From: Eledone cirrhosa
Taxonomy: Eukaryota
Direction: 5' to 3'
NCBI GenBank assembly: GCA_964016885.1
Contig: OZ024742.1
Coordinates: 339,636,001-339,700,000, forward strand
Length of the DNA: 64,000 nt
The translations under genes were made by a program, and so were the position numbers. Below are positions 5,544-55,032 of this stretch, in pieces. The notes under the pieces were generated by a model, which worked only from the letters and a program-made list of their open reading frames with translations, did no database searches and had not been told where the DNA came from. Position 1 is the stretch's first letter; every line of letters begins with the position of its first letter.

Positions 5544-5640
5544 ATACATACATACATACATACATACATACATACATACATACATACATACACACATACA
5601 CACATACATACATACATACATACATACATACATACATACA

Positions 5641-23771: not shown

Positions 23772-23789
23772 GTTGGTGGTAAAGAAAGA

Positions 23790-25607: not shown

Positions 25608-25811
25608 TTTAAATTAAAGATTTTCACCCCAAAAGGGCGAACATATATTTACCCTACGTCTACAGTTCCAGACGAGGGGTTAGAGTCAACAATAATAACA
25701 AAATTCAAATAACGCACTCACAAATGACAAAGTAGTGATCGAAGAGCCGATATGAAAGACGTCCACTATCACACAGACAGAGAGACGGACAGAGAGGTAG
25801 ACAGATAGATA

Positions 25812-26044
25812 TGTTTATTTGCCACAGGAGCGTAAAAAAGTGGGACATTACAAGACGTGATGGCGGCGCTTTTACATAAATATCATATAACTTTAACATT
25901 AATAAATAACAACAAACCATATATAATAAAATAACAATTGAAATCCCCAGTATGGGGCAACGTCGGTAGAACAACCCTGAACACCAGGAACAGGTTTTGT
26001 AGGTGTTCCCGTCTTCCCTCTGTTTATCTTCCTTAACCTAAAGT
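25812..26044 (-). mobile_element. Severely 5'-truncated Tx1 copy (3' UTR only, distinct subfamily)
   Basis: Shares the terminal GTGGCAAATAAA and TGTCCCACTTTT motifs; flanked by GAYA repeats. Confidence 0.65.
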
Positions 26045-26061
26045 CAGACAGACAGATAGAT

Positions 26062-27570: not shown

Positions 27571-27977
27571 AGATAGTTAGATAGAGACAGACAAGCTATG
27601 GGATAGACAGGTAGACAGTTAGATAGAGAGACAGACAGGCTATGGGATAGACAGGTAGACAGTCAGGTAGAGAGACAGACATGCTATGGGATAGACAGGT
27701 AAACAGTTAGATAGACAGACAGACAGGCTATGGGATAGACAGGTAGACAGTTAGATAGAGAGACAGACAAGCTATGGGATAGACAGGTAGACAGTTAGAT
27801 AGAGAGACAGACAAGCTATGGGATAGACAGGTAGACAGTTAGATAGAGAGACAGACAGGCTATAGGATAGACAGGTAGACAGTTAGATAGAGAGACAGAC
27901 AAGCTATGGGAGAGACAGGTAGACAGTTAGATAGAGAGACAGACAAGCTATGGGATAGACAGGTAGACAGTTAGATA
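27571..27977. repeat. 44-bp satellite GATAGACAGGTAGACAGTTAGATAGAGAGACAGACARGCTATGG, block 1
   Basis: Directly visible tandem units. Confidence 0.95.
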
Positions 27978-29310
27978 TGTTTCTTTTATTTGCCACTAGG
28001 GCATCAACAGTGGGACAAGTACAAAGGGGGGAGTTTACACAAAAAGGCGTCCTCAATAAGGAGGAGCAATAACAAAATATAAAAATAAAATAAGATATAA
28101 CAAAAAATAAAATTTTTAACAAAATCCTCAATAGAGAGGAGGCGCCTTGGGGGGTCGCACACACCCCCGAAAAAAGTGTGCAACCCTTTTCCTCAGGAGC
28201 ACAGAGAGGGGGTGCTCCCTCGTTCCTTCATCTTTTCCACCTACAGGCTTATGTAAAGAGAAGGCCCATTCACACGGGCCATTCTCGCCACTTTCACCCA
28301 CCTTTCATAAAAACGACTGGGGTGCAGCACCTCTCTCTCCATCCTGATCCTTCTTCCGAAATGATATCGGAAGAAACGGACCAGTTGTTGGCCAGAGAGA
28401 AAGGTGCCTGACCTCAGTCCTTTCAGACGCGTCCACCATACAACCTCTTTCGCCATGGCTATTACGCACAGAAACACCGCCTCTGCTTCATTTTTGAAGG
28501 GGGGAGGCGGCTTGATCATTACAATAGACTCGGTGGTCAACCGGATCGGTCCCACCCTTGACAGCAGTTGTTCGACATAGCCCCACAGATCGGCTACGCC
28601 CGAGCAGTGTACCAATGCGTGTGCAACGGTTTCCTCGTCGCACACGCATCTGGGACAGATCTTTTTGGCGGGGTCCCTACCCGGGCGCCCGTGTCTGTAG
28701 AGCCTTTCTCGAACGGGTAAAGCCCCTCGGTAGCACTGCCAGGCCAGGGACTTCTGGAAGTTGTCCATAGGTCCCGGGCTGAATGTCCTACCGAACAGGC
28801 TGGCCAGTTCGTTCTCCTCCATGTCTAGGGCTTCTCCGAGGGCGTCGTCGCACCTGCTGCGTACCAGCCCTCTATAGAATGTTGCGGTGGAGTCTCCACT
28901 GATAACCGGATCCGCCTGCCAGAGGGCGGTGAGCGTCTGGGCACACTCAGTGTGCCAGGCGCCCAGTTTTCTCGGTCTTTGCTTGACCCAGGATTGCAGC
29001 TCGGTGAGTGAGACGAGTCTGGGAAGGTTCGTCTCACAAACGAGGCCCACACCGGTTGTCCGGTGAGGAATACGTAGAGGTGCCGTAGCCTTAATGCGTG
29101 TTTACGCATCATTAGCCACGGCATCCCCAGCCCTCCTTTCGAAGGGTGTTGACAGCAGATGGATCTCCTCACCATAGGAGCCCGCCTCTTCCAAAGGAAT
29201 TGGAAGAGCGCGCGCTCCATCTTGGTGAGGGTTTCCCTTGGGCAGGGCACTACGGTCAGGCGGTAGTAGATGACGGACGCTATATAAGTGTTCGCCACCT
29301 CCGCCCGACC
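27978..29310 (-). mobile_element. 5'-truncated Tx1 copy inserted in the satellite
   Basis: ORF2 C-terminal region with CPRC..ETVAHALVHC zinc finger; same subfamily as 26062-27225. Confidence 0.92.
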
Positions 29311-30316
29311 TTTAGATAGAGAGACAGACAGGCTATGGGATAGACAGGTAGACAGTTAGATAGAGAGACAGACAAGCTATGGGATAGACAGGTAGACAGT
29401 TAGATAGAGAGACAGACAGGCTATAGAATAGACAGGTAGACAGTTAGATAGAGACACAGACAAGCTATGGGAGAGACAGGTAGACAGTTAGATAGAGAGA
29501 CAGACAGGCTATGGGATAGACAGGTAGACAGTTAGATAGAGAGACAGACATGCTATGGGATAGACAGGTAGACAGTTAGATAGAGAGACAGACAAGCTAT
29601 GGGATAGACAGGTAGACAGTTAGATAGAGAGACAGACAGGCTATAGGATAGACAGGTAGACAGTTAGATAGAGAGACAGACAAGCTATGGGAGAGACAGG
29701 TAGACAGTTAGATAGAGAGACAGACAAGCTATGGGATAGACAGGTAGACAGTTAGATAGAGAGACAGACAGGCTATGGGATAGACAGGTAGACAGTTAGA
29801 TAGAGAGACAGACAGGCTATGGGAGAGACAGGTAGACAGTTAGATAGAGAGACAGGCTATGGGAGAGACAGGTAGACAGTTAGACAGAGAGACAGACAGG
29901 CCATGGGAGAGACAGGTAGAAAGTTAGATAGAGAGACAGACAAGCTATGGGATAGACAGGTAGACAGTTAGATAGAGAGAGAGACAAGCTATGGGATAGC
30001 CAGGTAGACAGTTAGATAGAGAGACAGACAAGCTATGGGATAGACAGGTAGACAGTTAGATAGAGAGACAGACAGGCTATGGGAGAGACAGGTAGACAGT
30101 TAGACAGAGAGACAGACAGTCTATGGGATAGACAGGTAGACAGTTAGATAGAGAGACAGACAAGCTATGGGATAGACAGGTAGACAGTTAGATAGAGAGA
30201 CAGACAGGCTATGGGAGAGACAGGTAGACAGTTAGACAGAGAGACAGACAGTCTATGGGAGAGACAGGTAGACAGTTAGACAGAGAGACAGACAGTCTAT
30301 GGGAGAGACAGGTAGA
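29311..30316. repeat. 44-bp satellite, block 2
   Basis: Directly visible tandem units. Confidence 0.95.
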
Positions 30317-30546
30317 TTTCTATTTATTTGCCACGAGGGCACAAAAGAAGGGGACATTTACACAGTGGGTGAGTTTACATAAATCGAGTAAAGAAAAAAG
30401 GAATAACAATAATAATATAACAATAAAAAGTCCTCAAAAGGGAGGGGGCGTGTTGGGGATTGCACATACCCCCGAAAAGTGTGCAACTCTTTTCGCGGGG
30501 GAAGCCCAGAGAGGAGGCGCTCCCCCTTTCCTCTTCACTTCTTCAC

Positions 30547-33500
30547 CTACAGAACAATGTAGAGAGAAGGCCCATTTACACGGGCCATTCTCGCTTCTTT
30601 CACCCACCTTTCATAAAACTGTCTGGGGCCAAGCACTTCTCTCTCCATCCTGATCCTTCTTCCGAAGTGGTATCGGAAGAAGTAAACCAGGTGATGGCCG
30701 GAGAGAAAGTCACCCGACCTCAGACCTTTCAGGCGCATCCACCACACAACCTCTTTCATCATGGCTATTACGCACAGAAAGACCGCCTCTGCTTCATTTC
30801 TGAAGGGAGGAGGCGGCTTGATGTTCACCACAGACTCGGCGGTTAATCGAATCGGCGCCACACGCGACAGCAGTCGTTCGACGTAGCCCCACAGATCGGC
30901 AACGCCCGGGAAGTGTACCAGTGCATGCGCAACGGTTTCCTCGTCGCGCACGCATCTGGGACAGATCTTTTTCGCGGGATCCCTGCCCGGGCGCCCGTGT
31001 CTGTAGAGCTTTTCTCGAACGGGCAGAGCCCCCGGGTAACACTGCCAGGCTAGGGACCTCTGGAAGTTGTCCATGGGTCCCGGGCCGAAAGTTCTACCGA
31101 ACAGGCTGGCCAGTTCGTCCTCCTCCATGCCTAGCTACTCTCCAAGGGTGTCGTCGCCCTTGCTAGCCACCAACCCTCTATAGAATGTCGAGGTGGATTC
31201 TCCACTGATAGTCGGGTCCGCTTGCCAGATAGCCGTGAGCGCCTGGGCACACTCGGTGTGCCAGTTGCCCAGTTTTCTCGGTCTTTGCTTCACCCAGGAT
31301 TGCAGTTCGGTGAGCGAGACGAGCTGTGGGAAGGCTCGCCTCACAAACGGGGCCCACACCGGCTGACCGTTGAGGAATACCTGTAGATGCCGTAGCCTCA
31401 ATGCGTGCCTACGCATCAACAGCCACGGCATACCCAGCCCTCCTTTCGAAGGGTGCTGGCAGCAGATGGATCTCCTCACCATGGGAGGCCGCTTCTTCCA
31501 GAGGAACTGGAAGAGCATGCGTTCCATGATGGTGAGCTTTTCCTTGGGGCAAGGCACGACGGTCAGGCGGTAGTAGATGACGGACGCTATGTAAGCGTTC
31601 GTCACCTCCGCCCGACCTTTCAGTGATAGTTTGCACTTGGCCCACTTCTGGGTCAGCGCAAACACCCTGCTCGTCACCTCGCCCCAATTCTTCTCCACCT
31701 GGAGGTCCGGTCCGAACCAGACCCCGAGCAGCTTCACCGGGCCCTCCGTCCACCGCCCGACGACACCGTCTAACGGCATCGGTTTGCCCCTCCACGTTCC
31801 GAGTTTCAAATCGACTGACTTGTCCTGGTTCAGCCTAGCCCCCGTCAGCCTTTCGTATTCCCCCAGTAGGGTGGCGATCGCCCCGATTTCCGAGGCGTCC
31901 GCCACCATTACTGTTACGTCGTCGGCATAGGCCGAGACCGCTTTGTGCAATCCCGGTTCCAGGGGTATGCCCCGCAGCAACTCCAACTTCCGCAGCAGTG
32001 GCTCGAGAGTCAATACGTACAGAAGGGAGGAGAGGGGGCACCCCTGCCTGATGGACCGGGTGATTTGAAACGGCTCCGAGAGGTAGCCGTTTACTTTAAT
32101 CCTAGAGTAGATGTTGCCACTGTGCATGGCAGAAATCCAGCCCCTGAAAACGGGTCCGAAGCCCGCCGCCGCTAGCACCCCATCCAGGTAACCATGGTCG
32201 ACCCTATCGAACGCCTTAGATTGATCCAAGTTGATCAGGGCCCCACCAAAGTCGGGTTCGTTGCCAACCCTCTCTACGATGTATCGCATGAGGTGGAGGT
32301 TGTCGCGAATGGACCTGGACGGGATAGCGCATGTCTGCGCGTCTCCCACCAAACCACCCACCACAAGCGCCAACCTCTTCGCCAACACCTTGGCCAAAAT
32401 CTGTAACTCTGCATTTAGCAGAGTTATGGGCCTAAAGTTACTTAAGTCGTCCCCTTTGCTCTCGTCCTTCCTCACTAGCGTGACCACGCCCTTGGTCACA
32501 GAACAGGGAATTCTCCCGTTCTGTTGCCAGTTGCAATAGACAGCCTCGAGGAGTTCGGAGAACAAGACCGGCATAGCTAAATAAAGTTCGTATGGTAGAC
32601 CATCGAGACCCGGAGATTTGCGTCTGCTGCATTGGCTGAGCGCTTCCCCGATTTCAGTGGTTGTGATTGGCCTTTCGCAGCACTCCGCTTCGCCCCTCGA
32701 AAGACGCGGTAGACCGTCGAGGTATGGACCGAAGTCCACATCCCCGTCCGGCCCCCCGCCCCCTCCGAACAGTCGAACAAAGTGCCTTTGAAAGGCCTCG
32801 CACATCCGCTCAGGTTCAAGGATCACCCGTCCATCCTGGTCTCACAAAGACCGAATCGTGGATTTAATCCCACTCTTGGCTTCTGTCACGCGGGCCCAGC
32901 TAACAGCTTTGGTCCCCTCGTTTCCTAAAGCACGTATTTTAATTCGGACAACGCAGCCTTCGTGCTTCGCGTCAAAGAACTGGCTCAACGCCGTTCTCGC
33001 CGCTAACACTCTGGCCACGTCTCCGCTCCTAATCGCCTCTTCTAGTTTAGCTGTTAACTCCCTTTCCTTCCTATTTCTATTTGCCGCTAGTTCCTTACTG
33101 TAACCTATCGAACTTACTCTAATCTCTCTCTTTAGAGATACCCACCACCTGCTGTTGACGATCGCTCCCGTCAACTGCATTTTAACTAAGCTACTAATCC
33201 GGTTCATGTAATCTTTCTTTGCCGGCAAGGACAAGTTCATCTTCCAGTAACCGGGACCCTGTCTATGCGTTCTATCAAGGTTGACCACGCAGGTCACTAA
33301 TTTGTGATCTGAATAGCCAACCATGATCAGTTCTGGACAACTAAATACGTCCCTATCCTTACTCCTAACCAACAACCTATCTAGGTACGATCTAGATTGT
33401 CCACTGCGGTTTGCCCAGGTCCAGGTTGGCGCATTTGGACAATCTAGTCGAAATCTATCGACCAGGTCGAATCGATCGAGTAACCCCTTGAGGCTGCTAC

Positions 33501-33985
33501 AGCACCCTCTATCGGGACATGCCCCTGCATAGTCCCAACGCGCATCTAGGATTCGATTCCAGTCCCCCACTAAAAGCAGGGAACGTGACGTTCCTAGAAA
33601 AGTCTCCAGACGCTGGAAGAAGTCGGCTCTTTCCGCCCCGAAGGGGGCATAAAGACCGACCAGTCTGAAAGCCCCGCATTCACCGCCTCCGACGTCCAGC
33701 ACCAGTAATCGACCCCCCGGGTCCGAGTGAACAATCTGTACGTCGAGAGTCAGACGTTTATCCAGCAGTACGGCAACTCCCCCCCCCCGCCTCCGGGTTG
33801 ACAGAGAGATGCGTGCATCTCAAAGTCATCGAAGGCGGGCGCCAGCTGTCTCACGCTGCTGATCCGACTCTCGCAAACAAGCATCACATCTATACTTTGT
33901 GATCTGAGGTCATTTAGAAGCTTTGCTTGCTTCCAAGCTGAGCCCAGGCCACGCGCGTTCAAACGGCCAACTCTCAATTGATCTA
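30547..33985 (-). pseudogene. Unit A ORF2 (APE-RT-zinc finger), disrupted
   Basis: Stops at 31135 and 32842 and a G-run frameshift near 33780; APE, YADD and CCHC motifs present. Confidence 0.9.
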
Positions 33986-35826
33986 TTTTGGTGTTGAAAG
34001 TGAAGAACGAAAAGCACCTACCTCTCTGGGTTGTGTAATTTCCATGGCATCAGGTGTGTTGGGTGGAGGGATGTTTTGTGGTGGTGTGGTGGGGTACCCG
34101 TGTGTGGTGGGGTTGGGGTATTTGGAGTTGTGTCAGGGAGAGGGGCGGTTATGGGGAAATCTTTCAAGAGGACGCGATTTAACGGTTTTAAACAGGGGGG
34201 CTCACGTCCCGTCTAAATTGTTCTTTTAAGGAACGATAAAGGTCCAGAGGGACCTTTATCATTTTTAAATGGTTGAAGTTCTCTGTTGAGATAAAGTTTG
34301 GCCCTTCGGTCTGCACCATAGGGTTATTGTTTATTAATTTAACCAGTTTTTTGTTTTCTTTATTTATATATGTGTATTGTAACGTCTTTTTTTGTGATGC
34401 TGTCAATGTTTCGGAGAGGGGAGGCGCAGATTTATTTTTGTTTGTTGAGGGTGGGGTGTTTTTGATTGGAGTTGGTGTTTGTGTGTGGGTTATTTGTGGT
34501 TAGCTGGGTGTGTGTTTTCTTTTTTTTCTTTTAACTTGTCTGAAGGCTTCTCCTCCTTCTTCTTCAGAAGTTGGGGGAAACTCTTCAGCGCTAGGTGGGA
34601 GGGACGTGTTGTGTGGTTGTTGTTTTTTGCGGGAGGGGTAGATTTGTTACTGTTTTTTTTATTATTTGTTTGGAATGGGTTTTGTGGTTGTGGTGGTGGT
34701 GGTGGTAATGTTTGTGTCGTGCTTGTGGTTGGTGATGGTGGTGGTGATGTTTGTGTTGTGGTTGGTGGTGGTGATTTTTGTGTCGTGCTTGTGTTTGGTG
34801 CTGGTGGTGGTGATGTTTGTGTTGTGTTTGTGGTTGGTGGTGTCTGTATTTTGTTTGCTGTGTGTGGTATTAGTGTATTTTTGGAGGTGGGTGGTGTTGG
34901 TGTACTGTTTGTGGTGGGTGTGGGCAATAGTCCTTTTTGGGGGATACGTTTCGGGCAGTTAGCCTTAACGTGTCCCCTTTCCATGCATAAATAGCATGCT
35001 GGTCTTCTCCCCTCTACAATTATATCTATTGGGGTAAGGACATCCAGCCAGATGCGATCCGGGATTTGTGCTATTCTTTCGGGCCTCATTTGGACTAGTA
35101 TGTCGAGGCCCATTCCCAGGAACGCATCTCCAGTTGCCTTCCCCATTGACAGCATTGTGTCTTCGCCCATGTCTATGAAGCCAGCAATAGCCCACCAGAA
35201 GTCCATTGTGGGCAGCATTGTTTTTACTTTTACTCTCTGTGTTCTTCTACCCATGTAGGAGGGATAGAAGCTGTATGTTGTCGATGAGAGTGGGCTTAGG
35301 GAAAGCTTCTCTGCCGTTTCCTTGTCTTTTGTTAAGACCGAAATGCTGCCATAGAGTCGGTCCTTTCGTATGAAGAGAATATTCTTCATATAGTCTTTTA
35401 GGACCAACTCTATTTCCATTTGGCTGGGCTGTGCTGGCTTTCTTGTTTGGTTCAGTATAGTTCTGAAGAGAACTGTGCTCTCTGTTCTGGCTTTCTTGAA
35501 TTCTGGGGGGGAGTTAATGGAAAACATTCCGTTCTCCCCCAAGACTATTTGTTTTTTCGCTTCGGCCAGTTTTTCTCTGGCGGCAGTTAAGTCAATTGGT
35601 GTGTATGTTATGGATTGTTTTGTTTTCTGGGTGAAAGTTGCCCTGTTGTTATTTGTATTATTTTCTGTTTGTTTGTTTTCCGTTAGCTCATAGTTTCCTT
35701 AACATTTGTTTTTTCATTTTCCTTGTTTGTTTCGTTGTCTAATTTTGTTGTAATTATGTTTTGTTCTTCAGACTTGGGGGGCGTGGCAGAGCTAATGGCA
35801 GACATGTCTGCCATCTTTTCCGCCAT
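33983..35826 (-). pseudogene. Unit A ORF1, disrupted
   Basis: ATG GCG GAA AAG at 35826; CYLCMERGHVKANC; frame breaks near 35690 and 34625. Confidence 0.85.
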
Positions 35827-36273
35827 GCTGCTAAGAAAGAAATTTTTCGGCAAAAAAATAGATATTTATTTTACCCCCTAAAAAGGGGGTAAATGCAAAA
35901 ATGTTTCCCTAAATAACAGGGGTTAGTGTTCCAAATGTGTTGCACTGAAAAATTTATCCGGTACTTACAATAGTAAGGGTAAATCCCGATGGAATAGCGG
36001 AGCCGATGTGAAGCGTGTCTCTCTATCTATCAAGATAGATAAATTTCTATTTATTTGCCACGAGGGCACAAAAGAAGGGGACATTTACACAGTGGGGGAG
36101 TTTACATAAATCGAGTAAAGAAAAAAGGAATAACAATAATAATATAACAATAAAAAGTCCTCAAAAGGGAGGGGGCGTGTTGGGGATTGCACATACCCCC
36201 GAAAAGTGTGCAACTCTTTTCGCGGGGGAAGCCCAGAGAGGAGGCGCTCCCCCTTTCCTCTTCACTTCTTCAC

Positions 36274-39200
36274 CTACAGAACAATGTAGAGAGAAGGCCC
36301 ATTTACACGGGCCATTCTCGCTTCTTTCACCCACCTTTCATAAAACTGCCTGGGGCCAAGCACTTCTCTCTCCATCCTGATCCTTCTTCCGAAGTGGTAT
36401 CGGAAGAAGTAAACCAGGTGATGGCCGGAGAGAAAGTCACCCGACCTCAGACCTTTCAGGCGCGTCCACCACACAACCTCTTTCATCATGGCTATTACGC
36501 ACAGAAAGACCGCCTCTGCTTCATTTCTGAAGGGAGGAGGCGGCTTGATGTTCACCACAGACTCGGCGGTTAATCGAATCGGCGCCACACGCGACAGCAG
36601 TCGTTCGACGTAGCCCCACAGATCGGCAACGCCCGGGCAGTGTACCAGTGCATGCGCAACGGTTTCCTCGTCGCGCACGCATCTGGGACAGATCTTTTTC
36701 GCGGGATCCCTGCCCGGGCGCCCGTGTCTGTAGAGCTTTTCTCGAACGGGCAGAGCCCCCCGGTAACACTGCCAGGCTAGGGACCTCTGGAAGTTGTCCA
36801 TGGGTCCCGGGCCGAAAGTTCTACCGAACAGGCTGGCCAGTTCGTCCTCCTCCATGCCTAGCTACTCTCCAAGGGTGTCGTCGCCATTGCTAGCCACCAA
36901 CCCTCTATAGAATGTCGAGGTGGATTCTCCACTGATAGTCGGGTCCGCTTGCCAGATAGCCGTGAGCGCCTGGGCACACTCGGTGTGCCAGTTGCCCAGT
37001 TTTCTCGGTCTTTGCTTCACCCAGGATTGCAGTTCGGTGAGCGAGACGAGCTGTGGGAAGGCTCGCCTCACAAACGGGGCCCACACCGGCTGACCGTTGA
37101 GGAATACCTGTAGATGCCGTAGCCTCAATGCGTGCCTACGCATCAACAGCCACGGCATACCCAGCCCTCCTTTCGAAGGGTGCTGGCAGCAGATGGATCT
37201 CCTCACCATGGGAGGCCGCTTCTTCCAGAGGAACTGGAAGAGCATGCGTTCCATGATGGTGAGCTTTTCCTTGGGGCAAGGCACGACGGTCAGGCGGTAG
37301 TAGATGACGGACGCTATGTAAGCGTTCGTCACCTCCGCCCGACCTTTCAGTGATAGTTTGCACTTGGCCCACTTCTGGGTCAGCGCAAACACCCTGCTCG
37401 TCACCTCGCCCCAATTCTTCTCCACCTGGAGGTCCGGTCCGAACCAGATCCCGAGCAGCTTCACCGGGCCCTCCGTCCACCGCCCGACGACACCGTCTAA
37501 CGGCATCGGTTTGCCCCTCCACGTTCCGAGTTTCAAACCGACTGACTTGTCCTGGTTCAGCCTAGCCCCCGTCAGCCTTTCGTATTCCCCCAGTAGGGTG
37601 GCGATCGCCCCGATTTCCGAGGCGTCCGCCACCATTACTGTTACGTCGTCGGCATAGGCCGAGACCGCTTTGTGCAATCCCGGTTCCAGGGGTATGCCCC
37701 GCAGCAACTCCAACTTCCGCAGCAGTGGCTCGAGAGTCAATACGTACAGAAGGGAGGAGAGGGGGCACCCCTGCCTGATGGACCGGGTGATTTGAAACGG
37801 CTCCGAGAGGTAGCCGTTTACTTTAATCCTAGAGTAGATGTTGCCACTGTGCATGGCAGAAATCCAGCCCCTGAAAACGGGTCCGAAGCCCGCCGCCGCT
37901 AGCACCCCATCCAGGTAACCATGGTCGACCCTATCGAACGCCTTAGATTGATCCAAGTTGATCAGGGCCCCACCAAAGTCGGGTTCGTTGCCAACCCTCT
38001 CTACGATGTATCGCATGAGGTGGAGGTTGTCGCGAATGGACCTGGACGGGATAGCGCATGTCTGCGCGTCTCTCACCAAACCACCCACCACAAGCGCCAA
38101 CCTCTTCGCCAACACCTTGGCCAAAATCTGTAACTCTGCATTTAGCAGAGTTATGGGCCTAAAGTTACTTAAGTCGTCCCCTTTGCTCTCGTCCTTCCTC
38201 ACTAGCGTGACCACGCCCTTGGTCACAGAACAGGGAATTCTCCCGTTCTGTTGCCAGTTGCAATAGACAGCCTCGAGGAGTTCGGAGAACAAGTCCGGCA
38301 TAGCTAAATAAAGTTCGTATGGTAGACCATCGAGACCCGGAGATTTGCGTCTGCTGCATTGGCTGAGCGCTTCCCCGATTTCAGTGGTTGTGATTGGCCT
38401 TTCGCAGCACTCCGCTTCGCCCCTCGAAAGACGCGGTAGACCGTCGAGGTATGGACCGAAGTCCACATCCCCGTCCGGCCCCCCGCCCCCTCCGAACAGT
38501 CGAGCAAAGTACCTTTGAAAGGCCTCGCACATCCGCTCAGGTTCAAGGATCACCCGTCCATCCTGGTCTCGCAAAGACCGAATGGTGGATTTAATCCCAC
38601 TCTTGGCTTCTGTCACGCGGGCCCAGCTAACAGCTTTGGTCCCCTCGTTTCCTAAAGCACGTATTTTACTTCGGACAACGCAGCCTTCGTGCTTCGCGTC
38701 AAAGAACTGGCTCAACGCCGTTCTCGCCGCTAACACTCTGGCTACGTCTCCGCTCCTAATCGCCTCTTCTAGTTTATCCGTTAAATCCCTTTCCTTCCTA
38801 TTTCTATTTGCCGCTAGTTCCTTACTGTAACCTATCGAACTTACTCTAATCTCTCTCTTTAGAGATACCCACCACCTACTGTTGACGATCGCTCCCGTCA
38901 ACCGCATCTTAACTAAGCTACTAATCCGGTTTCTGTAATCTTTCTTTGTCGGCAAGGACAAGTTCATCTTCCAGTAACCGGGACCCTGTCTATGCGTTCT
39001 ATCAAGGTTGACCACGCAGGTCACTAATTTGTGATCTGAATAGCCAACCATGATCAGTTCTGGACAACTAAATATGTCCCTATCCTTACTCCTAACCAAA
39101 AACCTATCTAGGTACGATCTAGATTGTCCACTGCGGTTTGCCCAGGTCCAGGTTGGCGCAGTTGGACAATCTAGTCGAAATCTCTCGACCAGGTCGAATC

Positions 39201-39715
39201 GATCGAGTAACCCCTTGAGGCTGCTACACCCCCCCTCTATCGGGACATGCCCCTGCATAGTCCCAACGCGCATCTAGGATTCGATTCCAGTCCCCCACTA
39301 AAAGCAGGGAACACGACGTTCCTAGAAAAGTCTCCAGACGCTGGAAGAAGTCGGCTCTTTCCGCCCCGAAGGGAGCATAAAGACCGACCAGTCTGAAAGC
39401 CCCGCCTTCACCGCCTCCGACGTCCAGCACCAGTAATCGACCCCCCGGGTCCGAGTGAACAATCTGTACGTCGAGAGTCAGACGTTTATCCAGCAGTACG
39501 GCAACTCCCCCCCCCCCCGCCTCCGGGTTGACAGAGAGATGCGTGCATCTCAAAGTCATCGAAGGCGGGCGCCAGCTGTCTCACGCTGCTGATCCGACTC
39601 TCGCAAACAACCATCACATCTATACTTTGTGACCTGAGGTCACTTAGAAGCTTTGCTTGCTTCCAAGCTGAGCTCAGGCCACGCGCGTTCAAACAGCCAA
39701 CTCTCAATTGATCTA
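36274..39715 (-). pseudogene. Unit B ORF2, disrupted
   Basis: 803-aa open stretch 36862-39273; TAG at 36862 shared with unit A; homopolymer frameshifts near 39230 and 39510. Confidence 0.9.
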
Positions 39716-41542
39716 TTTTGGTGTTGAAAGTGAAGAAAGAAAAGCACTTACCTCTCCGGGTTGCGTAATTTCCATGGCATCAGGTGTGTTGGGTGGAGGG
39801 ATGTTTTGTGGTGGTGTGGGGGTACACGTGTGTGGTGGGGTTGGGGTATTTGGAGTTGTGTCAGGGAGAGGGGCGGTTATGGGGAAATCTTTCAAGAGGA
39901 CGCGATTCAACGGTTTTAAACAGGGGGGGCTCACGTCCCGTCTAAATTGTTCTTTTAAGGAACGATAAAGGTCCAGAGGGACCTTTATCATTTTTAAATG
40001 GGTGAAGTTCTCTGTTGAGATAAAGTTTGGCCCTTCGGTCTGCACCATAGGGTTATTGTTTATTAATTTAACCAGTTTTTTGTTTTCTTTATTTATATAT
40101 GTGTATTGCAACGTCTTTTTTTGTGATGCTGTCAATGTTTCGGAGAGGGGAGGCGCAGATTTATTTTTGTTTGTTGAGGGTGGGGTGTTTTTGATTGGAG
40201 TTGGTGTTTGTGTGTGGGTTATTTGTGGTGTGCTGGGTGTGTGTTTTCTTTTTTTTCTTTTAACTTGTCTGAAGGCTTCTCCTTCTTCTTCAGAAGTTGG
40301 GGGAAACTCTTCAGCGCTAGGTGGGAGGGACGTGTTGTGTGGTTGTTTTTTTTTGCGGGAGGGGTAGATTTGTTACTGTTTTTTTTATTATTTGTTTGGA
40401 ATGGGTTTTGTGGTGGTGGTGGTAATGTTTGTGTCGTGCTTGTGGTTGGTGATGGTGGTGTTTGTGTTGTGGTTGGTGGTGGTGATTTTTGTGTCGTGCT
40501 TGTGTTTGGTGCTGGTGGTGGTGATGTTTGTGTTGTGTTTGTGGTTGGTGGTGTCTGTATTTTGTTTGCTGTGTGTGGTATTAGTGTATTTTTGGAGGTG
40601 GGTGGTGTTGGTGTACTGTTTGTGGTGGGTGTGGGCAATAGTCCTTTTTGGGGGATACGTTTCGGGCAGTTAGCCTTAACGTGTCCCCTTTCCATGCATA
40701 AATAGCATGCTGGTCTTCTCCCCTCTACAATTATGTCTATTGGGGTAAGGTCATCCAGCCAGAAGCGATCCGGGATTTGTGCTATTCTTTCGGGCCTCAT
40801 TTGGACTAGTATGTCGAGGCCCATTCCCAGGAACGCATCTCCAGTTGCCTTCCCCATTGACAGCATTGTGTCTTCGCCCATATCTATGAAGCCAGCAATA
40901 GCCCACCAGAAGTCCATTGTGGGCAGCATTGTTTTTACTTTTACTCTCTGTGTTCTTCTACCCATGTAGGAGGGATAGAAGCTATATGTTGTCGATGAGA
41001 GTGGGCTTAAGGAAAGCTTCTCCGCCGTTTCCTTGTCTCTTGTTAGGACCGAAATGCTGCCATAGAGTCGGTCCTTTCGTATGAAGAGAATATTCTTCAT
41101 ATAGTCTTTTAGGACTAACTCTATTTCCATTTGGCTGGGCTGTGCTGGCTTTCTTGTCTGGTTCAGTATAGTTCTGTAGAGAACTGTGTTTTCTGCTCTG
41201 GCTTTCTTGAATTCTGGGGGGGGGGGGGGAGTTAATGGAAAACATTCCGTTCTCCCCCAAAACAATGTGTTTCTTTGCTTCGGCCAGTTTTTCTCTGGCG
41301 GCAGTTAGGTCAATTGGTGTGTATGTAATGGATTGTTTTGTTTTCTGGGCGAAAGTTGCCCTGTTGTTATTTGTATTATTTTCTGTTTGTTTGTTTTCTG
41401 TTTGCTCATTTTCCTTAACATTTGTTTTTTCATTTTCTTTGTTTGTTTCATTGTCTAATTTTATTGTAATTATTTTTTGTTCTTCAGACTTGGGGGGCGT
41501 GGCAGAGCTAATGGCAGACATGTCTGCCATCTTTTCCGCCAT
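39713..41542 (-). pseudogene. Unit B ORF1, disrupted
   Basis: MAEKMAD..; C-run frameshift near 41220; -1 break near 40350. Confidence 0.85.
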
Positions 41543-41981
41543 GCTGCCAAGAAAGAAATTTTTCGGCAAAAATAGATATTTATTTTACCCCCTAAAAAGG
41601 GGGTAAATGCAAAAATGTTTCCCTAAAAAACAGGGGTTAGTGTTCCAAATGTGTTGCACTGAAAAATTTATCCGGTACTTACAATAGTAAGGGTAAATCC
41701 CGATGGAATAGCGGAGCCGATGTGAAGCGTGTCTTACTCTATCAAGATAAATTTCTATTTATTTGCCACGAGGGCACAAAAGAAGGGGACATTTACACAG
41801 TGGGGGAGTTTACATAAATCGAGTAAAGAAAAAAGGAATAACAATAATAATATAACAATAAAAAGTCCTCAAAAGGGAGGGGGCGTGTTGGGGATTGCAC
41901 ATACCCCCGAAAAGTGTGCAACTCTTTTCGCGGGGGAAGCCCAGAGAGGAGGCGCTCCCCCTTTCCTCTTCACTTCTTCAC

Positions 41982-44900
41982 CTACAGAACAATGTAGAGA
42001 GAAGGCCCATTTACACGGGCCATTCTCGCTTCTTTCACCCACCTTTCATAAAACTGTCTGGGACCAAGCACTTCTCTCTCCATCCTGATTCTTCTTCCGA
42101 AGTGGTATCGGAAGAAGTAAACCAGGTGATGGCCGGAGAGAAAGTCACCCGACCTCAGACCTTTCAGGCGCGTCCACCACACAACCTCTTTCATCATGGC
42201 TATTACGCACAGAAAGACCGCCTCTGCTTCATTTCTGAAGGGAGGAGGCGGCTTGATGTTCACCACAGACTCGGCGGTTAATCGAATCGGCGCCACACGC
42301 GACAGCAGTCGTTCGACGTAGCCCCACAGATCGGCAACGCCCGGGCAGTGTACCAGTGCATGCGCAACGGTTTCCTCGTCGCGCACGCATCTGGGACAGA
42401 TCTTTTTCGCGGGATCCCTGCCCGGGCGCCCGTGTCTGTAGAGCTTTTCTCGAACGGGCAGAGCCCCCCGGTAACACTGCCAGGCTAGGGACCTCTGGAA
42501 GTTGTCCATGGGTCCCGGGCCGAAAGTTCTACCGAACAGGCTGGCCAGTTCGTCCTCCTCCATGCCTAGCGACTCTCCAAGGGTGTCGTCGCCCTTGCTA
42601 GCCACCAACCCTCTATAGAATGTCGAGGTGGATTCCCCACTGATAGTCGGGTCCGCTTGCCAGATAGCCGTGAGCGCCTGGGCACACTCGGTGTGCCAGT
42701 TGCCCAGTTTTCTCGGTCTTTGCTTCACCCAGGATTACAGTTCGGTGAGCGAGACGAGCTGTGGGAAGGCTCGCCTCACAAACGGGGCCCACACCGGCTG
42801 ACCGTTGAGGAATACCTGTAGATGCCGTAGCCTCAATGCGTGCCTACGCATCAACAGCCACGGCATACCCAGCCCTCCTTTCGAAGGGTGCTGGCAGCAG
42901 ATGGATCTCCTCACCATGGGAGGCCGCTTCTTCCAGAGGAACTGGAAGAGCATGCGTTCCATGATGGTGAGCTTTTCCTTGGGGCAAGGCACGACGGTCA
43001 GGCGGTAGTAGATGACGGACGCTATGTAAGCGTTCGTCACCTCCGCCCGACCTTTCAGTGATAGTTTGCACTTGGCCCACTTCTGGGTCAGCGCAAACAC
43101 CCTGCTCGTCACCTCGCCCCAATTCTTCTCCACCTGGAGGTCCGGTCCGAACCAGACCCCGAGCAGCTTCACCGGGCCCTCCGTCCACCGCCCGACGACA
43201 CCGTCTAACGGCATCGGTTTGCCCCTCCACGTTCCGAGTTGCAAACCGACTGACTTGTCCTGGTTCAGCTTAGCCCCCGTCAGCCTTTCGTATTCCTCCA
43301 GTAGGGTGGCGATCGCCCCGATTTCCGAGGCGTCCGCCACCATTACTGTTACGTCGTCGGCATAGGCCGAGACCGCTTTGTGCAATCCCGGTTCCAGGGG
43401 TATGCCCCGCAGCAACTCCAACTTCCGCAGCAGTGGCTCGAGAGTCAATACGTACAGAAGGGAGGAGAGGGGGCACCCCTGTCTGATGGATCGGGTGATT
43501 TGAAACGGCTCCGAGAGGTAGCCGTTTACTTTAATCCTAGAGTAGATGTTGCCACTGTGCATGGCAGAAATCCAGCCCCTGAAAACGGGTCCGAAGCCCG
43601 CCGCCGCTAGCACCGCATCCAGGTAACCATGGTCGACCCTATCGAACGCCTTAGATTGATCCAAGTTGATCAGGGCCCCACCAAAGCCGGGTTCGTAGCC
43701 AACCCTCTCTATGATGTATCGCATGAGGTGGAGGTTGTCGTGAATGGACCTGGACGGGATAGCGCATGTCTGCGCGTCTCCCACCAAACCACCCACCACA
43801 AGCGCCAACCTCTTCGCCAACACCTTGGCCAAAATCTGTAACTCTGCATTCAGCAGAGTTATGGGCCTAAAGTTACTTAAGTCGTCCCCCTTGCTCTCGT
43901 CCTTCCTCACTAGCGTGACCACGCCCTTGGTCACAGAACAGGGAATTCTCCCGTTCTGTTGCCAGTTGCAATAGACAGCCTCGAGGAGTTCGGAGAACAA
44001 GACCGGCATAGCTAAATAAAGTTCGTATGGTAGACCATCGAGACCCGGGGATTTGCGTCTGCTGCATTGGCTGAGCGCTTCCCCGATTTCAGTGGCTGTG
44101 ATTGGCCCTTCGCAGCACTCCGCTTCGCCGCTCGAAAGACGCGGTAGACCGTCGAGGTATGGACCGAAGTCCACATCCCCGTCCGGCCCCCCGCCACCTC
44201 CGAACAGTCGAGCAAAGTGCCTTTGAAAGGTCTCGCACATTCGCTCAGGTTCAAGGATCACCCGTCCATCCTGGTCTCGCAAAGACCGAATGGTGGATTT
44301 AATCCCACTCTTGGCTTCTGTCACGCGGGCCCAGCTAACAGCTTTGGTCCCCTCGTTTCCTAAAGCACGTATTTTACTTCGGACAACGCAGCCTTCGTGC
44401 TTCGCGTCAAAGAACTGGCTCAATGCCGTTCTCGTCGCTAACACTCTGGCTACGTCTCCGCTCCTAATCGCCTCTTCTAGTTTATCTGTTAACTCCCTTT
44501 CCCTCCTATTTCTATTCGCCGCTAGTTCCTTACTGTAACCTATCGAACTTACTCTAATCTCTCTCTTTAGAGATATCCACCACCTACTGTTGACGATCGC
44601 TCCCGTCAACCGCATCTTAACTAAGCTACTAATCCGGTTTCTGTAATCTTTCTTTGTCGGTAAGGACAAGTTCATCTTCCAGTAACCGGGACCCTGTCTA
44701 TGCGTTCTATCAAGGTTGACCACGCAGGTCACTAATTTGTGATCTGAATAGCCAACCATGATCAGTTCTGGACAACTAAATACGTCCCTATCCTTACTCC
44801 TAACCAAAAACCTATCTAGGTACGATCTAGATTGTCCACTGCGGTTTGCCCAGGTCCAGGTTGGCGCAGTTGGACAATCTAGTCGAAATCTATCGACCAG

Positions 44901-45422
44901 GTCGAATCGATCGAGTAACCCCTTGAGGCTGCTACACCCCCCTCTATCGGGACATGCCCCTGCATAGTCCCAACGCGCATCTAGGATTCCATTCCAGTCC
45001 CCCACTAAAAGCAGGGAACGCGACGTTCCTAGAAAAGTCTCCAGACGTTGGAAGAAGTCGGCTCTTTCCGCCCCGAAGGGAGCATAAAGACCGACCAGTC
45101 TGAAAGCCCCGCCTTCACCACCTCCGACGTCCAGCACCAGTAATCGACCCCCCGGGTCCGAGTGAACAATCTGTACGTCGAGAGTCAGACGTTTATCCAG
45201 CAGTACGGCAACTCCCCCCCCCCCCGCCTCCGGGTTGACAGAGAGATGCGTGCATCTCAAAGTCATCGAAGGCGGGCGCCAGCTGTCTCACGCTGCTGAT
45301 CCGACTCTCGCAAACAACCATCACATCTATACTTTGTGACCTGAGGTCACTTAGAAGCTTTGCTTGCTTCCAAGCTGAGCTCAGGCCACGCGCGTTCAAA
45401 CAGCCAACTCTCAATTGATCTA
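41982..45422 (-). pseudogene. Unit C ORF2, nearly intact
   Basis: 843-aa open stretch 42735-45266; CAA>TAA at 42735; G-run frameshift near 45220. Confidence 0.9.
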
Positions 45423-47246
45423 TTTTGGTGTTGAAAGTGAAGAAAGAAAAGCACTTACCTCTCCGGGTTGCGTAATTTCCATGGCATCAGGTGTGTTGGG
45501 TGGAGGGATGTTTTGTGGTGGTGTGGGGGTACACGTGTGTGGTGGGGTTGGGGTATTTGGAGTTGTGTCAGGGAGAGGGGCGGTTATGGGGAAATCTTTC
45601 AAGAGGACGCGATTCAACGGTTTTAAACAGGGGGGGCTCACGTCCCGTCTAAATTGTTCTTTTAAGGAACGATAAAGGTCCAGAGGGACCTTTATCATTT
45701 TTAAATGGGTGAAGTTCTCTGTTGAGATAAAGTTTGGCCCTTCGGTCTGCACCATAGGGTTATTGTTTATTAATTTAACCAGTTTTTTGTTTTCTTTATT
45801 TATATATGTGTATTGCAACGTCTTTTTTTGTGATGCTGTCAATGTTTCGGAGAGGGGAGGCGCAGATTTATTTTTGTTTGTTGAGGGTGGGGTGTTTTTG
45901 ATTGGAGTTGGTGTTTGTGTGTGGGTTATTTGTGGTGTGCTGGGTGTGTGTTTTCTTTTTTTTCTTTTAACTTGTCTGAAGGCTTCTCCTTCTTCTTCAG
46001 AAGTTGGGGGAAACTCTTCAGCGCTAGGTGGGAGGGACGTGTTGTGTGGTTGTTTTTTTTTGCGGGAGGGGTAGATTTGTTACTGTTTTTTTTATTATTT
46101 GTTTGGAATGGGTTTTGTGGTGGTGGTGGTAATGTTTGTGTCGTGCTTGTGGTTGGTGATGGTGGTGTTTGTGTTGTGGTTGGTGGTGGTGATTTTTGTG
46201 TCGTGCTTGTGTTTGGTGCTGGTGGTGGTGATGTTTGTGTTGTGTTTGTGGTTGGTGGTGTCTGTATTTTGTTTGCTGTGTGTGGTATTAGTGTATTTTT
46301 GGAGGTGGGTGGTGTTGGTGTACTGTTTGTGGTGGGTGTGGGCAATAGTCCTTTTTGGGGGATACGTTTCGGGCAGTTAGCCTTAACGTGTCCCCTTTCC
46401 ATGCATAAATAGCATGCTGGTCTTCTCCCCTCTACAATTATGTCTATTGGGGTAAGGTCATCCAGCCAGAAGCGATCCGGGATTTGTGCTATTCTTTCGG
46501 GCCTCATTTGGACTAGTATGTCGAGGCCCATTCCCAGGAACGCATCTCCAGTTGCCTTCCCCATTGACAGCATTGTGTCTTCGCCCATATCTATGAAGCC
46601 AGCAATAGCCCACCAGAAGTCCATTGTGGGCAGCATTGTTTTTACTTTTACTCTCTGTGTTCTTCTACCCATGTAGGAGGGATAGAAGCTATATGTTGTC
46701 GATGAGAGTGGGCTTAAGGAAAGCTTCTCCGCCGTTTCCTTGTCTCTTGTTAGGACCGAAATGCTGCCATAGAGTCGGTCCTTTCGTATGAAGAGAATAT
46801 TCTTCATATAGTCTTTTAGGACTAACTCTATTTCCATTTGGCTGGGCTGTGCTGGCTTTCTTGTCTGGTTCAGTATAGTTCTGTAGAGAACTGTGTTTTC
46901 TGCTCTGGCTTTCTTGAATTCTGGGGGGGGGGGAGTTAATGGAAAACATTCCGTTCTCCCCCAAAACAATGTGTTTCTTTGCTTCGGCCAGTTTTTCTCT
47001 GGCGGCAGTTAGGTCAATTGGTGTGTATGTAATGGATTGTTTTGTTTTCTGGGCGAAAGTTGCCCTGTTGTTATTTGTATTATTTTCTGTTTGTTTGTTT
47101 TCTGTTTGCTCATTTTCCTTAACATTTGTTTTTTCATTTTCTTTGTTTGTTTCATTGTCTAATTTTATTGTAATTATTTTTTGTTCTTCAGACTTGGGGG
47201 GCGTGGCAGAGCTAATGGCAGACATGTCTGCCATCTTTTCCGCCAT
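45420..47246 (-). pseudogene. Unit C ORF1, disrupted
   Basis: Essentially the same as unit B ORF1. Confidence 0.85.
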
Positions 47247-47453
47247 GCTGCCAAGAAAGAAATTTTTCGGCAAAAATAGATATTTATTTTACCCCCTAAA
47301 AAGGGGGTAAATGCAAAAATGTTTCCCTAAAAAACAGGGGTTAGTGTTCCAAATGTGTTGCACTGAAAAATTTATCCGGTACTTACAATAGTAAGGGTAA
47401 ATCCCGATGGAATAGCGGAGCCGATGTGAAGCGTGTCTTACTCTATCAAGATA

Positions 47454-48446
47454 AATTTCTATTTATTTGCCACGAGGGCACAAAAGAAGGGGACATTTAC
47501 ACAGTGGGGGAGTTTACATAAATCGAGTAAAGAAAAAAGGAATAACAATAATAATATAACAATAAAAAGTCCTCAAAAGGGAGGGGGCGTGTTGGGGATT
47601 GCACATACCCCCGAAAAGTGTGCAACTCTTTTCGCGGGGGAAGCCCAGAGAGGAGGCGCTCCCCCTTTCCTCTTCACTTCTTCACCTACAGAACAATGTA
47701 GAGAGAAGGCCCATTTACACGGGCCATTCTCGCTTCTTTCACCCACCTTTCATAAAACTGTCTGGGACCAAGCACTTCTCTCTCCATCCTGATTCTTCTT
47801 CCGAAGTGGTATCGGAAGAAGTAAACCAGGTGATGGCCGGAGAGAAAGTCACCCGACCTCAGACCTTTCAGGCGCGTCCACCACACAACCTCTTTCATCA
47901 TGGCTATTACGCACAGAAAGACCGCCTCTGCTTCATTTCTGAAGGGAGGAGGCGGCTTGATGTTCACCACAGACTCGGCGGTTAATCGAATCGGCGCCAC
48001 ACGCGACAGCAGTCGTTCGACGTAGCCCCACAGATCGGCAACGCCCGGGCAGTGTACCAGTGCATGCGCAACGGTTTCCTCGTCGCGCACGCATCTGGGA
48101 CAGATCTTTTTCGCGGGATCCCTGCCCGGGCGCCCGTGTCTGTAGAGCTTTTCTCGAACGGGCAGAGCCCCCCGGTAACACTGCCAGGCTAGGGACCTCT
48201 GGAAGTTGTCCATGGGTCCCGGGCCGAAAGTTCTACCGAACAGGCTGGCCAGTTCGTCCTCCTCCATGCCTAGCGACTCTCCAAGGGTGTCGTCGCCCTT
48301 GCTAGCCACCAACCCTCTATAGAATGTCGAGGTGGATTCCCCACTGATAGTCGGGTCCGCTTGCCAGATAGCCGTGAGCGCCTGGGCACACTCGGTGTGC
48401 CAGTTGCCCAGTTTTCTCGGTCTTTGCTTCACCCAGGATTACAGTT
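47454..48446 (-). mobile_element. Tx1 array unit D (3' about 1 kb only)
   Basis: Matches the 3' end of unit C including the TAA lesion; ends at ACAGTT microhomology with the satellite. Confidence 0.93.
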
Positions 48447-51220
48447 AGATAGAGAGACAGACAGGCTATGGGATAGACAGGTAGACAGTTGGATAGAGAG
48501 ACAGACAGTCTATGGGATAGACAGGTAGACAGTTAGATAGAGAGACAGACAAGCTATGGGATAGACAGGTAGACAGTTAGATAGAGAGACAGGCTATCGG
48601 ATAGACAGGTAGACAGTTAGACAGAGAGGCTATGGGAGAGACAGGTAGACAGTTAGATAGAGAGACAGACAAGATATGGGAGACAGGTAGACAGTTAGAT
48701 AGAGAGACAGACAGGCTATGGGATAGACAGGTAGACAGTTAGATAGAGAGACATACAAGCTATGGGATAGACAGGTAGACAGTTAGATAGAGAGACAGAC
48801 AGGCTATGGGATAGACAGGTAGACAGTTAGAGAGAGAGACAGACAAGCTATGGGATAGAGAGGTAGACAGTTAGACAGAGAGACAGACAGGCTATGGGAG
48901 AGACAGGTAGACAGTTAGATAGAGAGACAGACAGGCTATGGGAGAGACAGGTAGACAGTTAGATAGAGAGACAGACAGGCTATGGGATAGACAGGTAGAC
49001 AGTTAGATAGAGAGACAGGCTATGGGATAGACAGGTAGACAGTTAGACAGAGAGACAGACAGGCTATGGGAGAGACAGGTAGACAGTTAGATAGAGAGAC
49101 AGACAGGTTATGGGATAGACAGGTAGACAGTTAGATAGAGAGACAGACAAGCTATGGGAGAGACAGGTAGACAGTTAGACAGAGAGACAGACAGGCTATG
49201 GGAGAGACAGGTAGACAGTTAGATAGAGAGACAGACAGGCTATAGGATAGACAGGTAGACAGTTAGATAGAGAGACAGACAAGCTATGGGATAGGCAGGT
49301 AGACAGTCAGATAGAGAGACAGACATGCTATGGGATAGACAGGTAGACAGTTAGATAGAGAGACAGACAGGCTATGGGATAGACAGGTAGACAGTTAGAT
49401 AGAGAGACAGACATGCTATGGGATAGACAGGTAGAAAGTTAGATAGAGAGACAGTCAAGCTATGGGATAGACAGGTAGACAGTTAGATAGAGAGACAGAC
49501 AGTCTATGGGATAGACAGGTAGACAGTTAGATAGAGAGACAGAAAAGCTATGGGATAGACAGGTAGACAGTTAGATAGAGAGACAGACAGGCTATGGGAT
49601 AGACAGGTAGACAGTTAGATAGAGAGACAGACAAGCTATGGGATAGACAGGTAGACAGTTAGATAGAGAGCCAGACAGGCTATGGGATAGACAGGTAGAC
49701 AGTTAGATAGAGAGACAGGCTATGGGATAGACAGGTAGACAGTTAGACAGAGAGACAGACAGGCTATGGGAGAGAGAGGTAGACAGTTAGATAGAGAGAA
49801 GACAGGTTATGGGATAGACAGGTAGACAGTTAGATAGAGAGACAGACAAGCTATGGGGAGACAGGTAGACAGTTAGATAGAGAGACAGACAGGCTATGGG
49901 ATAGACAGCTAGACAGTTAGATAGAGAGACCGACAGGCTATGGGATAGACAGGTAGACAGTTGGATAGAGAGACAGACAGTCTATGTGATAGACAGGTAG
50001 ACAGTTAGATAGAGAGACAGACAAGCTATGGGATAGACAGGTAGACAGTTAGATAGAGAGACAGGCTATCGGATAGACAGGTAGACAGTTAGACAGAGAG
50101 ACAGACAGGCTATGGGTGAGACAGGTAGACAGTTAGATAGAGAGACAGACAAGATATGGGAGACAGGTAGACAGTTAGATAGAGAGACAGACAGGCTATG
50201 GGATAGACAGATAGACAGTTAGATAGAGAGACAGACAAGCTATGGGATAGACAGCTAGACAGTTAGATAGAGAGACAGACAGGCTATGGGATAGACAGGT
50301 AGACAGTTAGATAGAGACACAGACAAGCTATAGGATAGACAGGTAGACAGTTAGACAGAGAGACAGACAGGCTATGGGAGAGACAGGTAGACAGTTAGAT
50401 AAAGAGACAGACAGGCTATGGGAGAGACAGGTAGACAGTTAGATAGAGAGACAGACAGGCTATGGGAGGGACAGGTAGACAGTTAGACAGAGAGACAGAC
50501 AGGCTATGGGAGAGACAGGTAGACAGTTAGATAGAGAGACAGACAGGCTATAGGATAGACAGGTAGACAGTTAGATAGAGAGACAGACAAGCTATGGGAT
50601 AGACAGGTAGACAGTCAGATAGAGAGACAGACATGCTATGGGATAGACAGGTAGACAGTTAGATAGAGAGACAGACAGGCTATGGGATAGACAGGTAGAC
50701 AGTTAGATAGAGAGACAGACAAGCTATGGGATAGACAGGTAGACAGTCAGATAGAGAGACAGACATGCTATGGGATAGACAGGTAGACAGTTAGATAGAG
50801 AGACAGACAGGCTATGGGATAGACAGGTAGAAAGTTAGATAGAGAGACAGACATGCTATGGGAGAGACAGTTAGAAGTTAGATAGACAGACAGACAGGCT
50901 ATGGAGAGACAGGTAGACAGTTAGATAGAGAGACAGACAGGCTATGGGAGAGAGGTAGACAGTTAGATAGAGAGACAGACAGGCTATGGGATAGACAGGT
51001 AGAAAGTTAGATAGAGAGACAGACAGGCTATGGGAGAGACAGGTAGACATTTAGATAGAGAGACAGACACGATATGGGATACACAGGTAGACAGTTAGAT
51101 AGAGTGACAGACAAGCTATAGGAGAGACAGGTAGACAGTTAGATAGAGAGACAGGCTATGGGAGAGACAGGTAGACAGTTAGATAGAGAGACAGACAGGC
51201 TATGGGATAGACAGGTAGAC
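48441..51220. repeat. 44-bp satellite, block 3 (about 2.8 kb), decaying into GACA repeats to about 51345
   Basis: Directly visible tandem units. Confidence 0.95.
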
Positions 51221-54897: not shown

Positions 54898-55032
54898 GTA
54901 TGTATGTATGCATGTATGTATGTATGCATGTATGTATGTATGTACGTATGTATGTATGTATGTATGTATGTATGTATGCATGTATGTATGCATGTATGTA
55001 TCTATGTATGTATGTATGTATGTATGTATGTA

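Follow-up and report, generated by a model that had tools for sequence, protein, structure and literature searches.

Why should a long interspersed nuclear element (LINE) hold a consensus 5' splice site between its two open reading frames (ORFs)? The question is raised by a stretch of 64,000 nucleotides (nt) from Eledone cirrhosa (assembly GCA_964016885.1, contig OZ024742.1, positions 339,636,001 to 339,700,000; the window). Three full units of about 5.7 kb and one 5'-truncated unit of a single LINE family (family 1) lie there on the minus strand, between 30.3 and 48.5 kb. A first-pass annotation had proposed that ORF2 is wholly enclosed in an intron whose acceptor AG is the ORF2 stop codon, and that splicing switches the element between an ORF1-only mRNA and an unspliced RNA. 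All the motifs it cited are present at their positions on the minus strand (donors at 45458, 39751, 34021, the latter as GTAGGT, and 23798), and the enclosed stretch of 3477, 3478 or 3475 nt ends in the ORF2 stop codon in the three full units. When related families are compared, the donor is conserved beyond chance, an excess not seen for the acceptor on its own. On balance, a copia-like splice that would join the ORF1-end donor to the AG within the ORF2 stop codon, giving an ORF1-only mRNA, is assigned a probability of roughly 0.55.

The lineages compared are families 1 to 6 and sublineages 5b and 5c, all from this genome; the intact families 1, 4 and 5 are 67–75% identical in ORF2. All eight exhibit G|GTAAGT at the end of ORF1, 27–45 nt before ORF2, although about half of the family 1 copies listed have GTAGGT. 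The ORF1 phase at this site is 0 in families 1 and 5b, 1 in families 5, 5c and 6, and 2 in families 2, 3 and 4. On the ORF2 tree, ((f3,(f1,f2)),((f4,f6),(f5,(f5b,f5c)))), at least four phase changes are needed, as counted by hand. The family 2 donor at 23798 contains the ORF1 stop and is in phase 2 in copies with an intact frame. Flanking bases diverge between families, but the seven donor bases do not. With 72 of the 255 four-fold sites of ORF2 invariant across six families (0.28), the chance of seven invariant donor bases is about 1.4e-4, and 0.006 when TAA is set aside as a stop codon; the relatedness of the families, and the fact that two of them first drew attention to the motif, make these figures guides rather than exact tests. 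Under a generic matrix, the ORF1-end donor is the top-scoring of 274–359 GT sites in six of the seven elements scored, with a tie for first place in family 3. A profile search also recovered four long octopod-type ORF1 proteins, two of which end in GK or GKS, as a translated phase 1 donor would, while the other two do not. The three donors and four acceptors of family 1 in the window are near-identical copies (97.6–99.2% identity) and therefore count as one observation.

More distant relatives, about 40% identical, were found in tandem arrays (loci L222–L261) on contigs filed under a bacterial metagenome-assembled genome (MAG). In one of these families (distant family A), AAG|GTAAGT directly follows the ORF1 stop at all 74 ORF1 ends seen. 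As the donor is kept across three reading phases and in this non-coding position, it is, on the sequence comparison, under selection at the nucleotide level, and it is very probably functional in some way. The distant families also hold strong acceptors in the 3' untranslated region (UTR), as scored with the generic matrix, and in one of them the pyrimidine tract varies whereas the TAG that follows it is the same in all 14 variants. A second donor consensus, GTRAGT, lies past the ORF2 stop, at 14 nt in L223–L260 and at 40 nt in L222, and is followed 150–250 nt further on by a strong acceptor, an arrangement that could be a 3' UTR intron or an alternative donor. In some variants the ORF2 stop falls inside this second donor, and the motif varies only where the donor consensus permits A or G. 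The contigs themselves (CAXXMW01, an uncultured Arenicella MAG) are tandem arrays of eukaryote-type LINEs and are likely host DNA binned into the MAG. Other searches for relatives were less productive. Metagenome contigs gave only distant reverse transcriptases (RTs; <37%), with one usable ORF2 start in 81 loci and hence no outgroup control; no relatives were found among viral contigs, nor any by a word search for ORF1 in a protein database, and a distant query returned families 5 and 4 again.

What the splice would do to the reading frame is a further source of evidence. The earlier claim that joining the two sites extends ORF1 in phase holds for family 1, where the predicted join adds three codons before a stop. 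An in-frame stop occurs within 9 nt of the junction in five of the eight lineages, against a 3' UTR background of 164 in 1665 positions; counted from the stop-codon AG, these stops lie at +9 in family 1, +5 in families 5 (TGA) and 5c (TAA), +6 in family 5b and +2 in family 6. Family 5b sits within a group of phase 1 lineages, but a base has been lost ahead of its donor, which puts it in phase 0 in all six copies that reach the donor (14 of the 20 fetched do not). In all 20 copies its downstream stop is displaced by one base as well, to a position further on, matching the 1-nt shift in donor phase 3.5 kb away. The nearby stops in five lineages, together with the matched shift in family 5b, support the proposed junction.

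The evidence at the acceptor is uneven. On the minus strand, TGTAG|GTG is found at 47686, 41982, 36274, 30547, 28241, 26249 and 20598, and seven of the eight lineages hold the stop-codon AG. Among the downstream AGs it ranks first of 264 in family 1, 6 of 255 in family 2, 5 of 264 in family 5, 7 of 237 in family 5b and between 5 and 21 in family 5c. Nevertheless, a TAG kept in five of six families is ordinary, given that 36 of 60 comparable two-fold purine sites match as well, and the pyrimidine tract is also accounted for by the codons of a hydrophobic C-terminus and by a predicted hairpin. This hairpin is present in all families (86% of cells paired, no compensatory pairs). No branch point was obvious by eye in the alignment inspected. 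A further acceptor named at the outset, TTTAG|GTT at 26038, proved to be the 5' truncation junction of a family 3 fragment comprising only 3' UTR, and is dropped as independent evidence; the true ORF2 end of family 3 is CCTGTAG|GTT, with an A-rich, weak tract. Conservation beyond the needs of coding and of the stop codon, which the first-pass annotation had proposed as a check, is thus found for the donor and only in part for the acceptor.

Several findings weigh against a splice to the ORF2 stop. The stop-codon AG is poorly ranked in family 3 (33 of 283) and family 6 (24–52 of about 260), and family 4 closes ORF2 with TAA; the nearby AAG at +7 is weak, a strong acceptor lies at +178, and the rank is within the range 24–55. 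The last 25 codons of ORF2 show no excess of synonymous conservation (3 of 6 sites versus 69 of 249, P 0.22). At the junction, the three phase 2 lineages would gain 29–76 codons before a stop; the test for matching frames is borderline given the stops present (P 0.055, or 0.078 with family 5c merged into family 5), and the phase 0 stops share the frame of ORF2 and may simply back up its own stop, a role that the phase 1 stops could not have. Among the distant relatives, distant family B (L222) holds no donor at the end of ORF1.

The genome also yielded no spliced retrocopies in the classes searched. A probe for the family 1 spliced junction gave no exact match and one unrelated match with three mismatches, and the retrocopies lacking exactly the enclosed 3.5 kb that the annotation had suggested looking for were not found in families 1–5 with patterns for other continuations at donor and acceptor, which required exact flanks of 16–19 nt, so that diverged copies escape, and left out GVA (families 1 and 4), HNA (family 5), a third base A (families 2 and 3) and all of families 5b, 5c and 6. 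The exceptions retrieved, 28 of 28 on the donor side and 4 of 4 on the acceptor side, are point changes or small deletions; every genomic copy examined retains the enclosed ORF2 stretch, and no ORF1-only genomic copy was found. At least 582 + 1527 + 338 = 2447 unspliced ORF1 ends were counted in families 1, 4 and 5, with no such count for families 2 and 3, and the family 1 copies searched include 656 3' ends. In human L1, 131 of 6609 copies are spliced, 11 of them needing help in trans (PMC5860796). At this lower rate about four spliced copies would be expected here, so the blank weighs modestly against splicing. An RNA devoid of ORF2 may be copied still more rarely. Moreover, if the ORF2-end hairpin were the recognition site of the RT, it would be lost by splicing, which would explain the absent retrocopies. 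A different candidate intron, in the 5' UTR (GTAAGT at 41682, with a pyrimidine tract and CAG just before the ORF1 ATG at 41543, minus strand), is retained in 17 of 17 copies printed and is unsupported.

The donor could have other uses. It could act as a docking site for the U1 small nuclear ribonucleoprotein (snRNP), keeping cleavage and polyadenylation from occurring too early, whether in the A-rich end of ORF1 or further on, and so allowing full-length RNA to be made, with the stop-codon AG incidental and no meaningful splice around ORF2. Such a role would suit a donor much better conserved than any acceptor, the lack of spliced retrocopies and the additional GTRAGT just past the ORF2 stop of the distant families. 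It would also suit the 13 AATAAA or ATTAAA hexamers found within 700 nt upstream of the donor in families 1, 2, 4 and 5 and distant family A, compared with about 6.5 in shuffles. There are precedents, as in HIV-1 a poly(A) signal is suppressed by a donor lying 195 nt beyond it (PMC3694450), and a copia-type donor has such a second role (PMC5580714). However, three of four family 6 copies lack a hexamer in the last 1000 nt ahead of the donor, ORF2 is devoid of hexamers in families 2, 3 and 4 and in both distant families, and docking alone leaves unexplained both the exact place of the donor at the ORF1 stop and the matched shift of family 5b. Docking without the ORF2-removing splice is the main alternative but rather unlikely, and docking can hold together with copia-like splicing, by analogy with the Arabidopsis element EVD (PMC5580714).

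That the donor is spliced mainly to another, family-specific acceptor is improbable. Candidates would be, in family 2, the AG 7 nt upstream of the stop AG (-7); in family 4, the 3' UTR site at +178; and otherwise a site about 250 nt before the end of ORF2, the next array unit or flanking DNA. AGs outranking the stop AG do exist in families 2 to 6 and in both distant families; the -7 AG is present in 7 of 7 family 2 copies shown and, in phase 2, would read into the ORF2 stop, and the +178 site is the best acceptor of family 4. But the stop AG is the best site in family 1, the family of the window, coding accounts for the -7 AG, which belongs to a serine codon, and for the -250 site, which falls in a run of prolines, and no retrocopies with other continuations appeared in the classes searched. 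Still less credible is the idea that stop codons, coding constraint and common descent produced both motifs as by-products, or that GGTAAGT serves translation re-initiation rather than the spliceosome. The TAA of phase 2 donors is indeed the ORF1 stop and the last T of phase 1 donors begins it, all eight lineages of this genome descend from one ancestor, the distant comparison was positive in one of two families, and the ORF2 of family 1 requires an unusual start. Nevertheless, the motif is kept in families 1 and 5b, where neither ORF has its stop within it, and is non-coding in the distant family; the constancy of the seven bases between diverging flanks and the consensus-like variation of the related 3' UTR motif also tell against it.

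For the proposed splicing switch as a whole, donor conservation and the junction stops speak in favour, the acceptor does so in part and the retrocopy search speaks against, so the switch itself is supported in part and remains an inference. Under it, U1 would bind the donor, and the splice to the stop-codon AG would remove ORF2 and leave a short mRNA for ORF1 alone; the message for ORF2, and the template, would still be the unspliced RNA. Splicing would thereby set the ratio of ORF1 to ORF2 protein. A donor at the ORF1 stop would leave ORF1 whole and place the junction beside the stop, so that under the 50-nt rule the mRNA would escape nonsense-mediated decay. Cis-preference would prevent a spliced RNA without ORF2 from being copied back. 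The broader proposal, in which a whole clade of cephalopod-type LINEs holds ORF2 inside a regulated spliceosomal intron (from the end of ORF1 to the ORF2 stop or the 3' UTR), sets the protein ratio by intron retention as in retroviruses and copia, and co-evolves donor phase and downstream stop across 3.5 kb, is evenly balanced between being right and wrong.

The closest parallel is found among Ty1/copia elements, in which splicing of a subgenomic gag RNA has been demonstrated in RNA, both for shGAG of EVD and for Drosophila copia with its intron of about 3 kb, and in which the donor of EVD has two roles, in gag RNA splicing and in preventing early termination (PMC5580714). Like these elements, the E. 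cirrhosa LINEs have a donor where the structural gene ends, conserved and more so than the acceptor, and would make a short spliced RNA for the structural protein and an unspliced one for the enzymes and as template (PMC5580714). Unlike them, they are non-LTR (long terminal repeat) elements with two ORFs instead of a single gag-pol frame, and the predicted intron holds all of ORF2. The resemblance proposed is one of working mode; the element is not a copia element. Within the L1 group, splice sites are functional in human L1 (SpIREs, PMC5860796; SpORF2, PMC2896524) and predicted here. The human splices begin in the 5' UTR and take out sequence of the promoter or of ORF1; they are deemed detrimental and leave retrocopies (PMC5860796, PMC2896524). 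The donor described here, by contrast, lies where ORF1 stops, and its use would remove ORF2; it looks selected and has left no retrocopy that was found. An ORF1-only product recalls HAL1 (half-L1), although HAL1 are genomic non-autonomous elements (PMC5753468) and no genomic counterpart of the ORF1-only product proposed here was found. As in the U1-dependent poly(A) occlusion of HIV-1 and foamy virus, a strong donor lies tens to hundreds of nt downstream of AATAAA hexamers, but the viral sites are defined LTR poly(A) sites, whereas the hexamers inside ORF1 are putative ones (PMC3694450). The introns of TART occur in antisense RNA (PMC1636488), and the main text on the 13 recently active L1-Tx1 families of Octopus vulgaris makes no mention of splicing (PMC13282606). 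A literature search whose reach excluded most subscription papers, Repbase reports and supplements found no LINE described with ORF2 inside an intron; within that reach, splicing to a message for the first gene only is known from LTR retrotransposons, with no case found described for LINEs. Some fish LINEs reportedly hold functional splice sites, a report which the search did not recover.

The start of ORF2 is also unusual. In family 1 the frame opens without ATG, at an ATA 35 nt past the donor that overlaps the ORF1 stop TAG (20 of 20 fetched copies); in the window this ATA lies at 39716, 45423 and 33986 on the minus strand. The first Met is residue 35, beyond the first conserved endonuclease motif, and the sister family 2 has ATG where family 1 has ATA. 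In a young family with intact copies, this arrangement suggests non-AUG stop-start coupling.

On its sequence features, namely an apurinic/apyrimidinic-type endonuclease (APE), an RT, zinc-binding domains, insertion into repeats and no LTRs, the element is an L1/Tx1-type non-LTR retrotransposon. The ORF2 of the intact copy L038 matches the endonuclease PF03372 (E 4.8e-12) and the RT PF00078 (E 4.8e-24); zf-RVT is found in ORF2 of unit B (E 2.8e-6) and is below the cut-off in L038, and the zf-CCHC of ORF1 is below the cut-off in family 1 and above it in L240. All 17 of the 5' flanks printed end in TATC repeats, the insertion target of family 1, and its 3' end consists of AATAAA and a short tail. 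Family 1 is young: of 839 candidates across the 3.0 Gb genome, the best 40 are 100% identical. The closest named protein is from Argonauta hians (63%); identity to the Xenopus Tx1 protein is 29%. Xenopus Tx1 and the Octopus vulgaris L1-Tx1 families share with these elements APE, RT and a zinc finger in ORF2, a CCHC motif in ORF1, repeat targeting and tandem arrays (PMC13282606), but the present elements form a branch of their own, separate at support 100 in a quick RT tree that does not resolve the link to P0031. The ORFs of unit B are interrupted by homopolymer frameshifts and one stop, and older relatives of family 1 occupy 20.4–29.3 kb of the window (Table 1).

Table 1. Coordinates, within the window, of the LINE units and of their observed and predicted features.
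Feature	Position	Strand	Remarks
Array unit A	30315..36032	-	Full-length family 1 LINE, GTAGGT sublineage
Array unit B	36046..41744	-	Full-length family 1 LINE, 5' end 41744
Array unit C	41750..47448	-	Full-length family 1 LINE
Unit D	47455..48458	-	5'-truncated family 1 copy (ORF2 end and 3' UTR)
ORF1, unit B	39713..41542	-	CCHC zinc knuckle; frameshifted, open in L033, L038, L040
ORF2, unit B	36274..39716	-	Endonuclease, RT, zf-RVT; starts at ATA, without ATG
Donor, unit A	34016..34024	-	GAG|GTAGGT
Donor, unit B	39746..39754	-	GAG|GTAAGT, ORF1 end, phase 0
Donor, unit C	45453..45461	-	GAG|GTAAGT
Predicted intron, unit A	30547..34021	-	3475 nt
Predicted intron, unit B	36274..39751	-	3478 nt; would enclose all of ORF2
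Predicted intron, unit C	41982..45458	-	3477 nt
Candidate acceptor	36273..36295	-	Pyrimidine tract and TGTAG|G, AG of ORF2 stop; same at 30547, 41982, 47686
Predicted hairpin	36290..36318	-	Last ORF2 codons; pairs with part of pyrimidine tract
3' UTR / predicted terminal exon, unit B	36046..36273	-	In-frame TGA +9, AATAAA +218
Older family 2 element	20355..25613	-	ORF2 ATG 23771, ORF2 end 20598
Family 3 fragment	25810..26043	-	3' UTR only
Family 2 3' fragment	26054..27218	-	ORF2 end 26249
Family 2 3' fragment	27969..29313	-	ORF2 end 28241

Some further observations concern the families and the rest of the window. Family 1 has 656 exact 3' ends in the genome versus 582 boundaries between ORF1 and ORF2, so most copies seem to reach ORF1 and 5' truncation is unusually low for a LINE. 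In family 5, as many as 10 units of about 5.84 kb follow one another head to tail in an array (e.g., G000:C1:423365591-423418125); this family targets TTA-type repeats, compared with the TATC repeats of family 1. A dispersed repeat of about 750 nt is present as inverted copies, 92–98% identical, at 4794-5546 and 54286-55429, with 49 kb between them. A 122-residue frame at 52090-52458, minus strand, looks, by its motif, like the restriction-like endonuclease end of another non-LTR element. An Rfam scan of positions 20000-41300 gave no matches.

LINEs need far more ORF1 than ORF2 protein, a ratio usually ascribed to inefficient translation of the unspliced two-ORF RNA. If the proposed splice is real, enclosing ORF2 in a conserved intron would solve this problem in a second way, convergent with that of copia, and would offer a host-controllable switch on young, high-copy families. 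LINE expression in cephalopod RNA-seq may then be ORF1-only and not mobile. Even without the splice, a donor kept through three reading phases would represent a new selected RNA signal in LINEs.

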